From a phage, in NCBI GenBank assembly GCA_036439915.1, contig GCA_036439915.1_3065.1: a stretch of DNA of 64,000 nucleotides. One strand, written 5' to 3'. Under the pieces are notes generated by a model, which was not told the origin of the DNA, ran no database searches, and saw only the letters and a program-made list of their open reading frames with translations. The translations under genes were made by a program, and so were the position numbers. Shown here piece by piece: positions 2,237 to 64,000 of this stretch (positions are counted from its first letter, which is position 1; the number at the start of each line of letters is the position of its first letter).

Positions 2237-3239
2237 AACTCACTAATTCAATCCAAGCCGGACGAAGTACATCTTGTACCATTTTAACTAATTCCTTTTT
2301 AATCAAAGAAGGATTATCCGCTTGAGTTAAAGTAATACCTTCACGAGAAGTTTCTTCCAAAATATCTTGAACAGTTAGTCCCATCACCTTTCCAAAATCC
2401 TTTGGACCAATTTCGCCAATTTTAGAAATAACGTTATTTACTCGGTTCAGTGTAACGTAGCAAGCTAAAATTCCCAGCAATTTATTATCAGCTTCTGACA
2501 GCTCAACTTTAGCTTTAATAGGCTTATCAGACTTTTTCTTTTCACTAAATTTAGAGTTCTTGCATTTAATAGCTACACGATTGCCATTAGGCATCCAAGA
2601 AGGATAACAAGGTTTCAATACATATCCTTCAGCAGTAAATACTTCGCCTTTTGCTTCGGCATTCCAAACGCATTTATTTGCATCAACTAATCCAGCATGG
2701 TCTACTGTAAAATTATAATCCTGGACGACAGAATCTAAATCATTTGGCAATTTAATAAGTTCTTCAAATTTACCACGACCCAAAAGTGGAGCCATTTTAA
2801 ATTTGAATGTATTACAGAATGATTCCATCATATAATCATCGACATAAGTCACATCACCACTTTCTGTAGTAACAATAATGTCAAATACATAAAAATCTTT
2901 ATCACCATAATCGACATTCTTCTGAATGCCAGGTCCAGCGAATTCGCCAAAGACTTGATAAGATACAACTGCTGAAGTTTCCATAATATCTTGTACTGCT
3001 TTAATGGAATCAGCGTAATTCTTTAGAATAATTTCATACCCAAAGAAATCTTCAGCAGGAAGAATAGGACCAGTACGTTTAGCGCAAGTTACTTTATCGC
3101 GCTCAATAATCAATGAGAAATTTGTGCCGTGAATCTTTTCACGAGCTACCCATTCCCCACCAGTCAATCCCAAGCTATAAAGTTTTTCAATAAATTTAGA
3201 GTTGTAATGATTTTCAAGACTGCTATACTTTTTAAACAT
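2235..3239 (-). CDS. rnlB: RNA ligase 2
   Basis: 334 aa (T4 Rnl2 length); N-terminus [14 protein letters not shown]; nucleotidyltransferase lysine motif KIHGTN. Confidence 0.9.
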
Positions 3240-3248
3240 AATTAATCC

Positions 3249-3527
3249 TCAAAATGTAATTTCTAACCAATCACCATCACGCTGGTCACTATTGACTTTA
3301 AAGCTAAATCCTTCTTTTCTCAGCCAATCACCAATTTCTTCAGTAATCAATTTATCGCGAGCAGTGCAATAATAACTAAAATACGTTTTACCTTGTTCAG
3401 CTGCTTTATTAGCAAGTTCCGAAAAATCTTTAATAAAACACTCTAGCTTAAACTGTTTGCTTTTAAGTGCTTTTTCGCGTAATTGATTAGCAAAAGATTC
3501 ATTTTCATAAAGATCATACTGTTCCAT
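3249..3527 (-). CDS. Hypothetical protein (position of T4 24.2)
   Basis: 92-aa ORF, overlaps neighbour start/stop, same strand as flanking early genes. Confidence 0.55.
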   Translation of the reverse strand: MEQYDLYENESFANQLREKALKSKQFKLECFIKDFSELANKAAEQGKTYFSYYCTARDKLITEEIGDWLRKEGFSFKVNSDQRDGDWLEITF

Positions 3528-5689: not shown

Positions 5690-7201
5690 ATGACTGACAT
5701 TAAAGTACATTTTTATGATTTTAGTCACGTGAGAATTGATTGTGAAGAAAGTACATTTCATGAACTCCGTGATTTCTTTAGCTTTGAAGCTGATGGGTAT
5801 CGTTTTAATCCGAAGTACAAATATGGCCACTGGGATGGACGAATCCGTCTTTTAGATTATAATCGCCTTCTTCCGTTTGGCTTAGTCGGGCAAATTAAAA
5901 AGTTCTGTGATAACTTTGGCTATAAAGCCTGGATTGACCCGCAAATTAACGAAAAAGAAAAATTATCAAGAAAAGATTTTGATGAATGGCTTTCTAAATT
6001 AGAAATCTATTCAGGAAATAAAAGAATTGAACCGCATTGGTATCAAAAAGATGCAGTGTTCGAAGGATTAGTTAATCGTCGTAGAATTCTTAATCTTCCA
6101 ACATCCGCAGGTAAATCTTTAATTCAAGCTTTGCTTGCACGTTATTATTTGGAAAATTATGAAGGTAAAATTCTTATCATTGTTCCAACAACTGCTCTGA
6201 CAACTCAGATGGCTGATGACTTTGTTGACTATCGTTTATTCAGTCATGCAATGATAAAGAAAATCGGTGGTGGAGCATCAAAAGATGATAAATATAAAAA
6301 TGATGCACCGGTAATTGTTGGTACATGGCAAACTGTAGTAAAACAACCAAAAGAATGGTTCTCACAATTTGGAATGATGATGAACGATGAATGCCATCTT
6401 GCCACAGGAAAAAGTATTTCATCTATCATATCAGGTTTAAATAACTGTATGTTCAAATTTGGTCTATCGGGTTCATTACGTGATGGCAAAGCCAATATCA
6501 TGCAGTATGTTGGAATGTTTGGTGAAATATTTAAGCCAGTAACGACTTCTAAATTAATGGAAGATGGACAAGTAACTGAGCTAAAAATTAATAGTATTTT
6601 TCTTCGCTATCCCGATGAGTTCACTACTAAATTAAAGGGAAAAACTTACCAAGAAGAAATAAAAATTATTACTGGACTCAGTAAAAGAAATAAATGGATC
6701 GCTAAATTAGCTATTAAACTTGCGCAAAAAGATGAAAACGCTTTTGTCATGTTTAAACATGTATCACATGGTAAAGCTATTTTCGATTTAATTAAAAATG
6801 AATACGATAAAGTTTATTACGTATCAGGGGAAGTTGATACTGAAACACGCAACGTAATGAAAACCTTAGCTGAAAACGGTAAAGGAATAATTATAGTAGC
6901 TAGTTATGGTGTATTTTCTACTGGTATTTCAGTTAAAAATCTGCATCACGTTGTTTTAGCACACGGTGTTAAATCTAAAATTATTGTATTGCAAACAATA
7001 GGTCGTGTATTACGTAAGCATGGTTCTAAAACAATCGCAACGGTCTGGGACCTCATTGACGATTGCGGTGTTAAGCCAAAATCTGCTAATACGAAAAAGA
7101 AATATGTTCATTTGAACTATCTTTTAAAACACGGCATTGATCGTATTCAGCGCTACGCAGATGAAAAATTTAATTACGTAATGAAAACAGTTAATTTATA
7201 A
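5690..7201 (+). CDS. uvsW: UvsW DNA helicase (SF2)
   Basis: 503 aa; Walker A PTSAGKS and DECH box (MMMNDECHLATG) visible. Confidence 0.9.
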   Translation: MTDIKVHFYDFSHVRIDCEESTFHELRDFFSFEADGYRFNPKYKYGHWDGRIRLLDYNRLLPFGLVGQIKKFCDNFGYKAWIDPQINEKEKLSRKDFDEWLSKLEIYSGNKRIEPHWYQKDAVFEGLVNRRRILNLPTSAGKSLIQALLARYYLENYEGKILIIVPTTALTTQMADDFVDYRLFSHAMIKKIGGGASKDDKYKNDAPVIVGTWQTVVKQPKEWFSQFGMMMNDECHLATGKSISSIISGLNNCMFKFGLSGSLRDGKANIMQYVGMFGEIFKPVTTSKLMEDGQVTELKINSIFLRYPDEFTTKLKGKTYQEEIKIITGLSKRNKWIAKLAIKLAQKDENAFVMFKHVSHGKAIFDLIKNEYDKVYYVSGEVDTETRNVMKTLAENGKGIIIVASYGVFSTGISVKNLHHVVLAHGVKSKIIVLQTIGRVLRKHGSKTIATVWDLIDDCGVKPKSANTKKKYVHLNYLLKHGIDRIQRYADEKFNYVMKTVNL

Positions 7202-7214
7202 GGGCTTCGGCCCT

Positions 7215-7457
7215 TTGGAGAAAAAGATGTTACTAGAATTTAAACAATTTCTTTATGAAGCTTCTATTGATGAATTTATGGGTAAAATTGCCTCTTGTCA
7301 AACATTAGAAGGTCTAGAAGAACTTGAAGCTTATTATAAGAAAAGAGTTAAAGAAACTGAATTAAAAGATACTGATGACATCTCAGTCAGAGATGCTTTG
7401 GCAGGAAAAAGAGCTGAATTAGAAGATTCAGACGATGAAGTAGAAGAAAGCTTTTAA
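7215..7457 (+). CDS. uvsW.1: UvsW.1 small acidic protein
   Basis: 80-aa ORF directly after uvsW, preceded by hairpin and SD. Confidence 0.7.
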   Translation: MEKKMLLEFKQFLYEASIDEFMGKIASCQTLEGLEELEAYYKKRVKETELKDTDDISVRDALAGKRAELEDSDDEVEESF

Positions 7458-24196: not shown

Positions 24197-24237
24197 AATA
24201 TTTTCCTCAGTAAGGGGCCGAAGCCCCTCATTTTATT

Positions 24238-53506: not shown

Positions 53507-53537
53507 AATGAGGGGCTTCGGCCCCTTGGAGGTTTAT

Positions 53538-60775: not shown

Positions 60776-60875
60776 AGTAAACGTTTAATACATCAATCAT
60801 TAAAACGATTGGGAATATACTCAAAACTATTAGTATTATAACTACATTCCATATAGCTTTAACAATCTTTTTCAT
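60762..60875 (-). CDS. Small membrane peptide (37 aa)
   Basis: Internal ATG with SD GGAGG just after promoter cassette; track N-terminus reads through promoter. Confidence 0.45.
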   Translation of the reverse strand: MKKIVKAIWNVVIILIVLSIFPIVLMIDVLNVYFGFM

Positions 60876-60903
60876 TTTCTGTTCCTCCGTAGTTGATAGG
60901 GTA

Positions 60904-60933
60904 ATAGTACCACGGAAGAACAGTCTTGTAAAC
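60904..60933 (-). promoter_or_regulatory. Early-type promoter (cassette family)
   Basis: Minus GTTTAC, 18-nt spacer, TACTAT; leader CAACTACGGAGG shared with 61391-61415. Confidence 0.45.
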
Positions 60934-61117: not shown

Positions 61118-61381
61118 TCATAGCTCAATCTCAGCGATTTTCATTTCATTACTATTAATAGCCGCTTTAAGACTATCTGAAAGAATTACATTCCAATGGT
61201 CATTCATATGACCACTAACTAAGCGTGTAATTTCTTCGGGAGTTGAAAAATAAGGCGTATCAGACTCCCAATGCGATAATCCTAAGCGAGTATAAATCAT
61301 ACCTTCATCATCGCTAGAATATTCAACTGACACAAACTCATCAGTTATTTTATGTTTAGCGTAATGAAATTTAAATTTCAT
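61118..61381 (-). CDS. Hypothetical protein (ndd.x / denB-proximal)
   Basis: 87 aa from internal ATG with SD GGAGGAG. Confidence 0.5.
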   Translation of the reverse strand: MKFKFHYAKHKITDEFVSVEYSSDDEGMIYTRLGLSHWESDTPYFSTPEEITRLVSGHMNDHWNVILSDSLKAAINSNEMKIAEIEL

Positions 61382-61409
61382 TTTCCGCTCCTCCGTAGTT
61401 GATAGTTGT

Positions 61410-61439
61410 ATAGTACCACGGTCCTTGTGGTATGTAAAC
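61410..61439 (-). promoter_or_regulatory. Early-type promoter (cassette family)
   Basis: Minus GTTTAC, 18-nt spacer, TACTAT, A/T-rich upstream. Confidence 0.45.
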
Positions 61440-61455
61440 CGTTTTGTGAAAATTT

Positions 61456-62013
61456 TTAAATGGAAAGATACCATCCGTTGTAGTTGCTTTTTCTTACAAC
61501 CTTACGAAGGTCTTCTCTGTCACCGATGAACTTCGGAGTGTACTGGATGACACCTGGGTGAATTTCTTTAGTGTTGAATATAATTATACAGTCAGCGACT
61601 TGATGATTTAGAATGGGCCCTAAATTTATTCCAGAACCATATGGATACTCTCCGCTGCATCCCGTTGTTACCGAAATCCAACGCGAGTCAGTTTGATGTG
61701 TCTTAACTTCTACACGAAGCCCGCAGTATCTTGGATGCGCCAATACATCCCATGCGTATGTATACGGGTCATTAACGTCCTCTTGGCCTTTGTTAACATA
61801 CCCGCTTAGCCAATCTGCCACAAAAAACTCTGCGTACACCGCGATACGGCATCTTTCGATAACTTCTGCTTTATCCTGGTTCGGGTTTTGTTTTAAAGAG
61901 TATCTTGCTGTATCAGCAATTTTGACCTTCATTTCACTAGTCAAGTCACTGTTCGATAGGGTAAATGTCGGAATCTGAAATAGTCTCTGTAAACCCGGAT
62001 TCGTTTTCTGCAT
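61456..62013 (-). CDS. denB: Endonuclease IV
   Basis: 185 aa (T4 DenB length), between ndd region and rIIB. Confidence 0.65.
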   Translation of the reverse strand: MQKTNPGLQRLFQIPTFTLSNSDLTSEMKVKIADTARYSLKQNPNQDKAEVIERCRIAVYAEFFVADWLSGYVNKGQEDVNDPYTYAWDVLAHPRYCGLRVEVKTHQTDSRWISVTTGCSGEYPYGSGINLGPILNHQVADCIIIFNTKEIHPGVIQYTPKFIGDREDLRKVVRKSNYNGWYLSI

Positions 62014-62275
62014 TTAGACTTTCCTTTTTACCGCTGAGATAAGCGTTATATACTTTAAGAGTGCCGTAATAAATTCGGTCATTTTCATCTAAAGACTCAC
62101 GGTCAAGTTCATCGAGTTCCTTTTTATCCATGACTATAACATCATTGCAATAAAGAAACCCAAGTTTTTTGTGTCCAAACTCAAATTTATTACAGTACAC
62201 AATATTAGCGTGATGATTACCATGTAGAGAAATTTCTTTTATGTCGGAATCACCGATATTCATACAATAAATCAT
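61946..62275 (-). CDS. Hypothetical protein overlapping denB 5' end
   Basis: 109-aa ORF with SD AAGGTGA; 68-nt overlap with denB. Confidence 0.45.
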   Translation of the reverse strand: MIYCMNIGDSDIKEISLHGNHHANIVYCNKFEFGHKKLGFLYCNDVIVMDKKELDELDRESLDENDRIYYGTLKVYNAYLSGKKESLNAENESGFTETISDSDIYPIEQ

Positions 62276-62292
62276 AATTCACCTTAAAACAA

Positions 62293-62310
62293 AAGGGCCG
62301 AAGCCCTTAT
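62293..62310. repeat. Hairpin AAGGGC-CGAA-GCCCTT, copy 1 of direct repeat
   Basis: 18-bp identity to 62521-62538; flanks the 64-aa ORF. Confidence 0.8.
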
Positions 62311-62311
62311 T

Positions 62312-62506
62312 TTATTTGAATTGTGCAATTCTTTTCTCTAGACACTCAGCATAAGATTTCATTGAGATGAACTGTGAAAGCAGCAGTTCTTGCTCAACTG
62401 CACTAACCGTTAGAAACTTTGCGCTTTCTAAAAATTTGCTCAGTGCATTAATTTTGAGCATTAATTGGTCGTATTCTTCTTTTACTCGTGCTTGATAACC
62501 TAACAT
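62312..62506 (-). CDS. Hypothetical small protein between rIIB and denB
   Basis: 64-aa ORF with SD AAGGAAAA, flanked by identical hairpins. Confidence 0.5.
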   Translation of the reverse strand: MLGYQARVKEEYDQLMLKINALSKFLESAKFLTVSAVEQELLLSQFISMKSYAECLEKRIAQFK

Positions 62507-62520
62507 AATTTTCCTTAGTT

Positions 62521-62540
62521 AAGGGCCGAAGCCCTTATTT
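62521..62540. repeat. Hairpin AAGGGC-CGAA-GCCCTT, copy 2 of direct repeat (overlaps rIIB stop)
   Basis: 18-bp identity to 62293-62310. Confidence 0.8.
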
Positions 62541-63473
62541 AAATTGTTCAGTAACGTCTTCAATTACTTCGTATTGGCAGGTACGCATTTTAGCGTCGTT
62601 GTAATCAATCGGAATTGATACTACATCACGAGGATGAACTTTAACTTTTACAACTCGGCTGGTTGAACCACCGAAGTGACGAATATAAGATTTAGAACAC
62701 ACATGCAGACCACGAGAACAAGTTTGTGTATCATCGTCATTCACACGAGTACGCGGCATTTTAACTACTTTACCAGGACTGTTATCAAAGGTATTTGAGT
62801 GACAGTCAAAGTAATTGCTACGAACTACTTTCCAAGCATAGAAGTAACCATCTTCTGTAATTTCAATATCGTTTGCTACCAAGAAATCAAAAAGTCGAGA
62901 TACCGCTTTCTGGCTTGGGTTTTCCAGCAGATTTTCCAAGAACGGAAAATAAAATTCAAAGTTTTCGCCTTTTTCCATCGAATCAAGAATACGATCAACC
63001 AAACCAGACCGCAATTCAATATTTTGATAGAATAAGCTTCCACCTTCAATTCGAACTTCGCCGGAAATATATTTTTCAACAGCGCGACGAACATTAATTT
63101 TTTGTGCCGCTTCTTCCAGCTTATCCGCTACAAGCAGATTGAGAATTTCCTGGAAGTTTGAATGAGTATTAGGCGTTGCATTATAAGTTACACCATCAAC
63201 AGTAATCGAAATGAATTTTTTAGATGCATTCCAAATAATGTCAGATTTAGCAACTGGAGCAATAACTGCATCGCTATTAACTTTAACTGTAATATCACCG
63301 CTAATAGTAATTTTAGAGTGTTTAGCTTCTTCAGCATTTTTCAAAACACGACGGATTGTATCAACCGATACACCTTGCCAATCAGCCAATTCTTGCTGAG
63401 TATAATTACCGCTTGAATACAGTTTAACAATTTCAGCTTGTTCATTTTTGGTCAGGCATTTAATATTGTACAT
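62535..63473 (-). CDS. rIIB: rIIB
   Basis: 312 aa (T4 rIIB length), downstream of rIIA. Confidence 0.85.
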   Translation of the reverse strand: MYNIKCLTKNEQAEIVKLYSSGNYTQQELADWQGVSVDTIRRVLKNAEEAKHSKITISGDITVKVNSDAVIAPVAKSDIIWNASKKFISITVDGVTYNATPNTHSNFQEILNLLVADKLEEAAQKINVRRAVEKYISGEVRIEGGSLFYQNIELRSGLVDRILDSMEKGENFEFYFPFLENLLENPSQKAVSRLFDFLVANDIEITEDGYFYAWKVVRSNYFDCHSNTFDNSPGKVVKMPRTRVNDDDTQTCSRGLHVCSKSYIRHFGGSTSRVVKVKVHPRDVVSIPIDYNDAKMRTCQYEVIEDVTEQFK

Positions 63474-63484
63474 AATTTTCCTTA

Positions 63485-64000
63485 TTAGGCCGCAAGGGCC
63501 TTCATAGTTTTAGCGATTTGGGAGACTTCATCATCGCTTAAAGAGCTGCGATAACCGATGAAGTCGGAAACAATACGGAATTTCTTGGTAAACTCAGCAA
63601 CCATTTTATCACTGTTTTTTGAAGCATTATTTGATAATACATCAAAAAGATTAGTTACTGTCCAGATGTCATGACCGATGGTATCTTTTCCACCATTAAA
63701 ATATACACCGCGCAATGAACTAACTATATTAGCGAGTCGTGTATATTCTTCAGAAACTTCATCTGTACTGAAGTACTTCATCATAAAATCTAATTCAGGA
63801 TGCTTGATAATTTTATCAATATATCGTTGAGCTGAACTTGAATAACCTACATACTTATCATAATCTACATCATCAAAAGCATCTACATATAAATCACGCA
63901 AAGCTTCAAAAATACATTGGCACTGACCGAGTTCTTTTACCTTTTTCTGTAAAAGCGGACGAATAACATAAAATTCATTAATGCCAATAAGATTAGCCAT
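63485..64000 (-). CDS. rIIA: rIIA, C-terminal part (5' end outside window)
   Basis: Open frame to window edge; adjacent to rIIB with short hairpin-containing junction. Confidence 0.8.

Follow-up and report, generated by a model that had tools for sequence, protein, structure and literature searches.

The two identical elements that flank the small gene between rIIB and denB in this phage are probably ordinary intercistronic C(UUCG)G mRNA hairpins of the T4 class, and not a dedicated boundary of a mobile element. The window, that is, the whole 64,000-nucleotide stretch of DNA that was analysed, was approximately 99% identical to Tequatrovirus genomes and is, by similarity, that of a T4-like phage (Tequatrovirus). 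The region from 61400 to 63500 matched about 500 Tequatrovirus genomes with 90-99% identity, the best matches being O157 typing phage 7 and wV7. The element class is already known, and precedents exist both for the element and for the recombination mechanism proposed for it. The modest addition made here is comparative: a hairpin conserved directly 3' of rIIB and supported by covariation, in an interval where genes are exchanged one by one. The features of the interval, and the third copy of the element, are listed below.

62535-63473, minus strand: rIIB, 312 aa (ORF list; annotation of close relatives and of T4)
62521-62540, minus strand: hairpin HP2, at the rIIB/denB.1 junction, mRNA UAAGGGC-UUCG-GCCCUUA
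62503-62517, minus strand: denB.1 translation-initiation region UAAGGAAAAUUAUGU, a 15-nt exact repeat of that of rIIB at 63470-63484
62312-62506, minus strand: denB.1, 64 aa, PF21825 (crAss001_48-related) (identity with T4 DenB.1; Pfam)
62293-62312, minus strand: hairpin HP1, 3' of denB.1, mRNA AAGGGC-UUCG-GCCCUU, the same sequence as HP2
62294-62286, minus strand: U-tract UUUUGUUUU (sequence; terminator scan)
62285-62280, minus strand: Shine-Dalgarno (SD) sequence AAGGUG ahead of the 109-aa ORF (sequence; segment 62276-62294)
61946-62275, minus strand: 109-aa ORF (ORF109), DUF7418 (PF24193) (Pfam, E = 4.3e-37)
61456-62013, minus strand: denB (endonuclease IV), 185 aa (PHROG, E = 2e-97)
7198-7215, plus strand: third identical hairpin, at the uvsW/uvsW.1 junction, in the sense orientation for those plus-strand genes

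Homology searches with the 64-aa and 109-aa proteins, which the first-pass annotation had proposed, identified both as members of known families, PF21825 (denB.1) and DUF7418. The 64-aa ORF was identical to T4 DenB.1 at 63 of 64 residues (98%) and matched PF21825 over residues 4-61 (E = 4.1e-19; 68.7 bits against a cut-off of 24.8). By homology it corresponds to denB.1, a gene that had been annotated in T4 before and was present as ORF64 in an old T4 entry (GenBank D16359). The PF21825 family comprised 204 representatives in an HMMER scan, mostly stand-alone proteins of 60-75 aa. The structural model of DenB.1 (pLDDT 97) was an antiparallel two-helix hairpin. A sequence search of the PDB gave a single match at chance level (E = 0.5) and a Foldseek search of the PDB with the model returned generic helical hairpins only (best E = 0.7); the fold gave no indication of function. 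Many GenBank records name denB.1 'endonuclease', a label that apparently was transferred from denB; DenB.1 matched no nuclease family and none of the searches that were run supported this name. The literature found under the name 'denB.1' consisted of a genome note, and a word-indexed protein search returned close relatives only.

The DUF7418 match covered residues 1-109 of the 109-aa ORF (127 bits against a cut-off of 27). This ORF is, as far as homology can tell, a DUF7418 gene that is ancestral in T4-like phages and was lost from the T4 reference, and in the ORF list it overlapped denB by 68 nt, as originally described. T4 endonuclease IV has been expressed from the same denB start as a protein of 185 aa, and expressing denB kills E. 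coli (PMC1635256). Region D is non-essential (PMC12115623).

An 18-bp element had been described as occurring twice in direct orientation, with the rIIB stop codon in the second copy and one 64-aa ORF with a good SD sequence between the copies. On the plus strand, the 18-mer AAGGGCCGAAGCCCTTAT was found exactly at 62293-62310 and 62521-62538, and the full exact direct repeat was 20 nt long (62293-62312 and 62521-62540). It could be stretched to 26 nt with 24 of 26 positions identical, at a spacing of 228 nt. The stop codon of rIIB (62535-62537) lay inside the second copy, where UAA (62537-62535) formed the base of the 5' arm of HP2, and the only ORF between the copies was denB.1 (62312-62506, minus strand), preceded by UAAGGAAAAUUAUG. 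A third exact copy of the 18-mer was located on the opposite strand at 7198-7215, where the flanking ORFs matched the Pfam families UvsW_N and UvsW-1. The chance expectation was 0.01 matches, and three copies were seen in none of 100 shuffles.

The element had also been described as a 6-bp stem with a tetraloop. The stem does fold, but it had been given on the plus strand; on the mRNA of these minus-strand genes the element reads AUAAGGGC-UUCG-GCCCUU and the loop is UUCG, not CGAA. Both copies folded into a 6-7-bp stem with a tetraloop and four G-C pairs, with predicted energies in a 46-nt context of -11.6 kcal/mol for HP1 (z = -2.8) and -10.9 kcal/mol for HP2 (z = -2.9). In both the UUCG loop was closed by a C-G pair, giving GGGC-UUCG-GCCC on the minus (coding) strand. 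HP2 was followed immediately by ACUAAGGAAAAUUAUG and had no U-tract. The ribosome-binding site of rIIB, like that of denB.1, was located directly 3' of a GC-rich hairpin.

About 12 GC-rich UUCG hairpins were found in the window, where they marked gene junctions; 11 of the 12 were intergenic, and in all 12 the UUCG was on the sense strand of the flanking genes, whichever DNA strand these occupied. UUCG was the dominant loop among the GC-rich tetraloop hairpins of the window (13 TTCG, with mirror-image CGAA counts), the next loop type being represented by two. A second pair of identical hairpins was present at 24211 (minus strand) and 53509 (plus strand), and UUCG hairpins also occurred at junctions of conserved genes, such as uvsW/uvsW.1. 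An Rfam scan of 61400-63600 (E ≤ 1) detected no family.

These properties are those of the C(UUCG)G hairpins of T4 mRNA, which reportedly were the subject of a paper by Tuerk et al. in 1988 (PNAS 85:1364). The two elements shared with them the loop, the C-G closure, the short G+C-rich stem and the phage group, and the T4 hairpins are likewise intercistronic, in early and late messages of the T4 type. Each mark of the class was found here, namely the loop and closing pair on the sense strand, a stable GC stem, an intercistronic position and compensatory changes, and T4 itself carried both hairpins at the same two positions. Nothing essential separated the elements from this class; added to it here were the covariation, across genera, of the hairpin 3' of rIIB and the presence of two identical copies that bracket one gene. 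It was in T4 mRNA that CUUCGG hairpins were discovered, and their stability is exceptional (PMC4371310). The main yield of the analysis is a tidier annotation, in which denB.1, the DUF7418 gene and the T4 CUUCGG hairpins are named.

Since a scan of IMG/VR for rIIB yielded only eight loci, diversity was taken from GenBank phage records. The interval was read in 30 loci from 13 lineages (Tequatro-, Mosig-, Dhaka-, Gapriver-, Kanagawa-, Marfa-, Winkler-, Kagamiyama-, Karam-, Gelderland-, Moon- and Tulanevirus, and phage Roth76). A UUCG hairpin was present between rIIB and the DUF7418 gene in all 13, and was directly 3' of rIIB in every lineage except Moonvirus. UUCG counterparts at the HP2 position, with compensatory stem changes, were found in 12 other lineages, and a hairpin at the HP1 position also occurred in Winklervirus, Kagamiyamavirus and Moonvirus. 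Four layouts were observed.

Layout A: rIIB-hairpin-DUF7418, without denB.1 (Mosigvirus, Karamvirus, Gelderlandvirus, Klebsiella phage Roth76); in a variant, Tulanevirus, rIIB-hairpin is followed by an unrelated ORF
Layout B: rIIB-hairpin-denB.1-DUF7418 (Dhaka-, Gapriver-, Kanagawa- and Marfavirus)
Layout C: rIIB and denB.1 overlapping, then hairpin-DUF7418 (Moonvirus)
Layout D: rIIB-hairpin-denB.1-hairpin-DUF7418 (Tequatro-, Winkler- and Kagamiyamavirus)

The first-pass annotation had held that its proposal of a mobile cassette would fall if both ORFs and both hairpins were universal in T4-like phages; the four layouts demonstrated that they are not. The order rIIB, denB.1 where present, DUF7418 gene and denB is, judged from these genomes, ancient. 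The ORF after the rIIB hairpin of Tulanevirus was not recognisable as a DUF7418 homolog, and the interval of Krischvirus was altogether different.

The stems varied widely across the layouts and included AAGGGC, GGAGGC, GGGGC, GGGGAC, GGAGAC, AGGAGCC, AAAGCCC and AUAAGCCCUC. By comparison, C-UUCG-G was constant in the 16 distinct sequences, barring one UUUG. In the alignment of these sequences 97.9% of cells were paired, and compensatory changes on both sides were present in five of the six stem pairs (29 cells; 16 sequences). The covariation score was 0.80, as against 0.24 when shuffled (reached in 0 of 500), and it collapsed when the partner was slid by one column. These comparative data are strong evidence that the hairpin structure itself is under selection and, taken with the sense-strand polarity, they point to the RNA as the level at which this selection acts. 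Among the RNA structures conserved in T4-like early messages, the UUCG hairpin that follows rIIB ranks with the better supported.

It had been suggested that the hairpins act as mRNA-stabilising or processing structures. That they are mRNA structures was borne out by the covarying stem and by the UUCG that was always on the sense strand, whereas the stabilising or processing role is one that may be inferred from them. HP1 with its tail UUUUGUUUU was called terminator-like on the minus strand; the same scan made no such call there for HP2, which has the tail AACUAAGGAA. HP1 thus resembles intrinsic terminators and 3' stabiliser hairpins in having a G+C-rich hairpin followed by a U-tract, but HP2 differs from them in having no U-tract, and both stems are short. 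In phages Melville and Moon the equivalent hairpin is annotated as a terminator, and in layout A the single hairpin carried a U-tract. The U-tract followed the rIIB hairpin in Winklervirus and Kagamiyamavirus, and in Dhakavirus and Gaprivervirus the interval contained no hairpin with a U-tract. Since the U-tract moves between hairpins across genera, termination cannot be the universally conserved function. A stem of 6-7 bp with four G-C pairs is short for a strong terminator. On the plus strand, which carries no genes here, both hairpins were called terminator-like. A literature search on T4 3'-end mapping and on intercistronic UUCG hairpins turned up nothing on transcript ends, half-lives or translation at this junction.

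In the proposed mechanism both hairpins would fold co-transcriptionally, and with unusual stability, in the early rIIB - denB.1 - ORF109 - denB message. HP1 (62293-62308) with UUUUGUUUU would serve, before transcription reaches ORF109 and denB (the gene of the toxic nuclease), as a leaky intrinsic terminator or attenuator, an arrangement that is plausible because denB is lethal in E. coli, and it would shield the resulting 3' end. HP2 (62520-62537) would form a barrier to 3' exonucleases that closes the rIIB cistron, and may also act as an insulator that leaves the ribosome-binding site of denB.1 (UAAGGAAAAUUAUG) unpaired. As a side effect, such conserved junctions would provide short patches of homology for the recombination-proficient phages of the T4 type, so that small accessory genes between them would occasionally be deleted or swapped, as for denB.1 between genera, not within Tequatrovirus. 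What the sequences establish are the hairpin structure and its covarying conservation, its sense-strand polarity and positions, and the identity and distribution of the genes; the functions, whether in terminating transcription, in protecting or insulating the mRNA or in recombination, are inferred.

The original proposal had been that denB.1 forms a mini-cassette gained or lost by recombination between the hairpins. In its full form, in which the hairpins are primarily recombination joints and a promoter-less analogue of the PeSL (described below), their RNA role is secondary, and denB.1 can be cut out (possibly as a mini-circle), inserted or exchanged, this explanation is unlikely. The comparison of the interval across genomes supported it in part, in that denB.1 comes and goes between genera, but the gene that was polymorphic within the genus was the 109-aa ORF. 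Three pairs of genera or phages that are sisters by rIIB identity, Tequatrovirus/Mosigvirus (76%), Marfavirus/Roth76 (86%) and Moonvirus/Gelderlandvirus (85%), each had denB.1 in one member only (the first-named), which indicates at least three independent gains or losses. The single hairpin of Mosigvirus adjoined the rIIB stop codon, as HP2 does, and had an upstream flank of the HP2 type; the sequence after it, UUUUUUUCUUUAGGGGUAAUUAUGAUU, is a homolog of the segment 3' of HP1 in the window, UUUUGUUUUAAGGUGAAUUAUGAUU. A junction that combines the upstream side of HP2 with the downstream side of HP1 looks like what recombination from hairpin to hairpin would leave. As all of the next-closest genera have denB.1, the simplest account would be an ancestor with two hairpins and a loss in Mosigvirus by recombination between them, the alternative being an ancestor with layout C.

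Within Tequatrovirus, however, the mini-cassette proposal failed. At 80% identity or more, denB.1 was present in 497 records and rIIB in 500, so that the gene is essentially fixed. The junction predicted for a hairpin-to-hairpin deletion was absent from the 30 best records, in all of which the match was split into two pieces approximately 228 nt apart. Both hairpins were retained in all 12 Tequatrovirus sequences that were inspected, and the two copies had changed independently of each other (HP2 carried UUUG in two phages, and T4 had 1-nt indels); no sign of their concerted evolution was detected in these 12 sequences.

Moonvirus provided further evidence for exchange. Among phages with 100% identical rIIB, denB.1 was only 45-80% identical at the DNA level and the DUF7418 gene was swapped independently. 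Between the divergent alleles was a 55-nt island, identical in all three phages, that contained the denB.1 stop codon, the hairpin, the U-tract, the SD sequence and the next start; shuffling of alleles at such a hairpin-centred island favours the mini-cassette, as does the discordance of denB.1 similarity with that of rIIB. Across genera this discordance was observed for denB.1, the DUF7418 gene and even denB: Dhakavirus FB and NC-G were 99% identical in rIIB and 41% in DUF7418, Kanagawavirus and Marfavirus were 78% identical in denB.1 as against 66% in rIIB, and the Moonvirus alleles were 54-62% identical in denB.1 as against 98-100% in rIIB. The rIIB-denB interval offers a compact natural experiment, with modular exchange one gene at a time. 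Against a hairpin-bounded cassette, five genera had denB.1 with one hairpin only, the Marfavirus/Roth76 indel was bounded by SD and ATG sequences and not by hairpins, and identical or similar hairpins were present at conserved-gene junctions elsewhere in the genome. In addition, the sense polarity of 12 of 12 hairpins would be unexpected for a DNA recombination site. In junctions that lack denB.1 (Gelderlandvirus against Moonvirus, Roth76 against Marfavirus), noise in the alignments precluded the calling of any remnant of the gene.

The identity of the two adjacent stems was considered separately. From the pair frequencies in the alignment across genera, the probability that two independent members of the family have the same 6-bp stem was roughly estimated at 0.02, so convergence is unlikely, which again favours the mini-cassette. 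In the other genera with two hairpins, by contrast, the stems were unlike each other (GGAGAC versus AAGGCC or AAGGGC). Among 12 hairpins about 1.4 identical pairs would be expected, also a rough estimate, and identical hairpins somewhere in the genome are consequently unremarkable. The identity of HP1 and HP2 is mildly unexpected and suggests that copying or gene conversion, at the DNA level, probably occurred in the Tequatrovirus lineage. Extension of the repeat into coding sequence, where both rIIB and denB.1 end in QFK-stop, was rejected as a sign of duplication, because the 25/26 match in Sf23 is derived (AATA lost) and F is ancestral in DenB.1 homologs.

A known system with similar cassette geometry is the PeSL (promoter-early stem-loop), a mobile regulatory cassette of T4-type phages in which a stem-loop is coupled to a sigma-70-like early promoter upstream of the next ORF; PeSLs flank accessory ORFs and recombine to excise them (Arbiol et al. 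2010, PMC2839356; Comeau et al. 2014, PMC4122927). Its promoter in T4/PST is of the type TTTACW-N17-TAYWAT (PMC2839356, PMC4122927), recombination was mapped within the stem-loop (PMC2839356), and exchange of ndd.4/ndd.5 via a PeSL took place in the same region D, a few genes downstream (PMC4122927). The present elements resemble PeSLs in being stem-loops with G-rich and C-rich arms between small accessory ORFs of the hyperplastic region D (rIIB to gene 52), and in being direct repeats around one small ORF that is inserted, deleted or replaced between related phages; a 20-nt repeat flanked the variable gene denB.1. They differ in that they also occur at conserved-gene junctions. No early promoter was called between either hairpin and the next ATG, where only 14 nt (HP2) and 17 nt (HP1) are available. 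Given these gaps and the lack of the adjacent promoter, the hairpins are not PeSLs in the strict sense.

A second precedent is the group of T4 deletions associated with GGGC. According to the summary in PMC2839356, GGGC motifs lay at roughly half of the 13 deletion endpoints in T4 described by Mosig et al. 1998, in some cases paired with GCCC inverted repeats, and a sequence-specific protein was proposed for these deletions (Mosig, Colowick and Pietz 1998, Gene 223:143, via PMC2839356). Both hairpins have a GGGC...GCCC stem, and the deletions, in that summary, removed small non-essential ORFs from a T4 hyperplastic region; they differ in lying between genes 56 and dda and in being laboratory events, whereas a denB.1 deletion was not seen in about 500 natural genomes. 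Together with PeSL recombination (PMC2839356) and the ndd.4/ndd.5 exchange (PMC4122927), these deletions, as far as that summary describes them, are the precedents on which the mini-cassette can draw.

A reading that combines the two roles may be offered tentatively. The UUCG hairpins, promoter-less and selected as RNA, might double as preferred crossover points, as 'SL-only' PeSLs, with denB.1 and the DUF7418 gene being rapidly exchanged, possibly as counter-defence genes, and with the Mosigvirus loss having occurred via two such hairpins. If they are preferred crossover points, an RNA regulatory element would be linked to genome plasticity and the PeSL concept would extend to promoter-less elements.

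It is very improbable that the GGGC...GCCC palindrome acts at the DNA level, as a protein-binding site or a cruciform that serves as a recombination, replication or packaging signal. An inverted repeat is present on both strands, and the protein proposed by Mosig et al. 1998, as reported in PMC2839356, could be such a ligand. However, the orientation was sense in 12 of 12 hairpins on either DNA strand, and it was the asymmetric UUCG that was kept, while the stem, which would be the presumed binding site, varied with compensation (GGAGAC, GGGGC, AAGCCC, CCCUC). G-U pairs also occurred, including in HP1 of T4, and these correspond to C-A mismatches on the other strand. A chance repeat without function, for which the shortness of the element might speak, is refuted by the excess of copies (3 observed against 0.01 expected) and by the cross-genus covariation.

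The gene that did vary within Tequatrovirus was the 109-aa ORF. A synthetic junction query indicated that about 228 of 521 Tequatrovirus records match the 5' part of this ORF. The other Tequatrovirus records, including T4 and T2, retained only a remnant of 37 codons (ORF37; GenBank D16359). All five remnant variants that were inspected had the same in-frame deletion, which was approximately 216 nt long and occurred at an AAAAG(G)AAA microrepeat, and several independent deletions within the genus were ruled out by this single endpoint. As its endpoints indicate, T4 lost the 109-aa ORF by a microhomology deletion and not at the hairpins. In slur07 a further 22 nt had been lost.

The 5' end of denB overlaps the DUF7418 3' end in a different reading frame, and in most genera the shared stretch is approximately 29-80 nt long. 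DUF7418 has a conserved C-terminal motif, DIYP(V/I)E, which is encoded within the denB coding sequence. The DIYP(V/I)E-coding end of the DUF7418 gene was kept after the T4-type deletion because it is also part of denB. In Moonvirus, denB.1 and the DUF7418 gene were found to be hypervariable allelic modules that assort independently, while rIIB was 98-100% identical between the same phages; this pattern points to diversifying selection, or to frequent exchange of alleles, at both small genes.

61946-62013, minus strand: DUF7418/denB overlap, with equivalents in comparison loci L011, L014, L015, L023 and L026
~900-1440 of loci L008-L010 (Moonvirus; L009 is Citrobacter phage Moon): hypervariable denB.1/DUF7418 modules

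Homologs of DenB.1 are frequently labelled "endonuclease" in phage GenBank records (matches H42, H45, H49 and H51, among others), a label that apparently was propagated from the name of the neighbouring gene. A family search with the 64-aa DenB.1 protein returned no match to a nuclease family, and the protein is predicted to be a two-helix hairpin.

denB.1 and rIIB have translation-initiation regions that repeat each other exactly over 15 nt, reading UAAGGAAAAUUAUGU in the mRNA; immediately 5' of each copy there is a GC-rich hairpin.

62503-62517, minus strand: initiation-region repeat, denB.1 copy
63470-63484, minus strand: initiation-region repeat, rIIB copy, an exact match
~63487-63501: rIIA 3'-end hairpin, AGGCC-CUUGC-GGCCU

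In the T4 reference sequence (NC_000866, locus L002), the G/C runs of each of the two UUCG hairpins (L002 positions 3224-3241 and 3453-3470) differed from those of other Tequatroviruses by 1-nt indels. The hairpin that follows denB.1 is perfect in another T4 record (D16359, locus L017), whereas NC_000866 is one C short. These indels represent either a legacy compression error, made in sequencing hairpins of such high stability, or a genuine difference between strains.

Just downstream of denB, a 46-nt repeat was observed that includes promoter-like TTTACA-N17-TACTAT hexamers and a Shine-Dalgarno sequence. The repeat pair has the look of an early-promoter module present in two copies. Exchange of ndd.4/ndd.5 mediated by promoter-early stem-loops (PeSLs) has been published for the region that holds the repeats (PMC4122927). 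The starts of the long ORFs called there (118 aa and 69 aa) are probably internal ATGs.

60870-60915 and 61376-61421: 46-nt repeat copies, 87% identical
60932..60904 and 61438..61410, minus strand: promoter-like sites

Elsewhere in the window, another pair of UUCG hairpins was identical, flanks included (aaaataaaaTGAGGGGCTTCGGCCCCTT). The two copies are separated by 29 kb and lie in opposite orientation, each being in the sense direction for its local genes.

24211-24230, minus strand: second identical hairpin pair, first copy
53509-53528, plus strand: second identical hairpin pair, second copy
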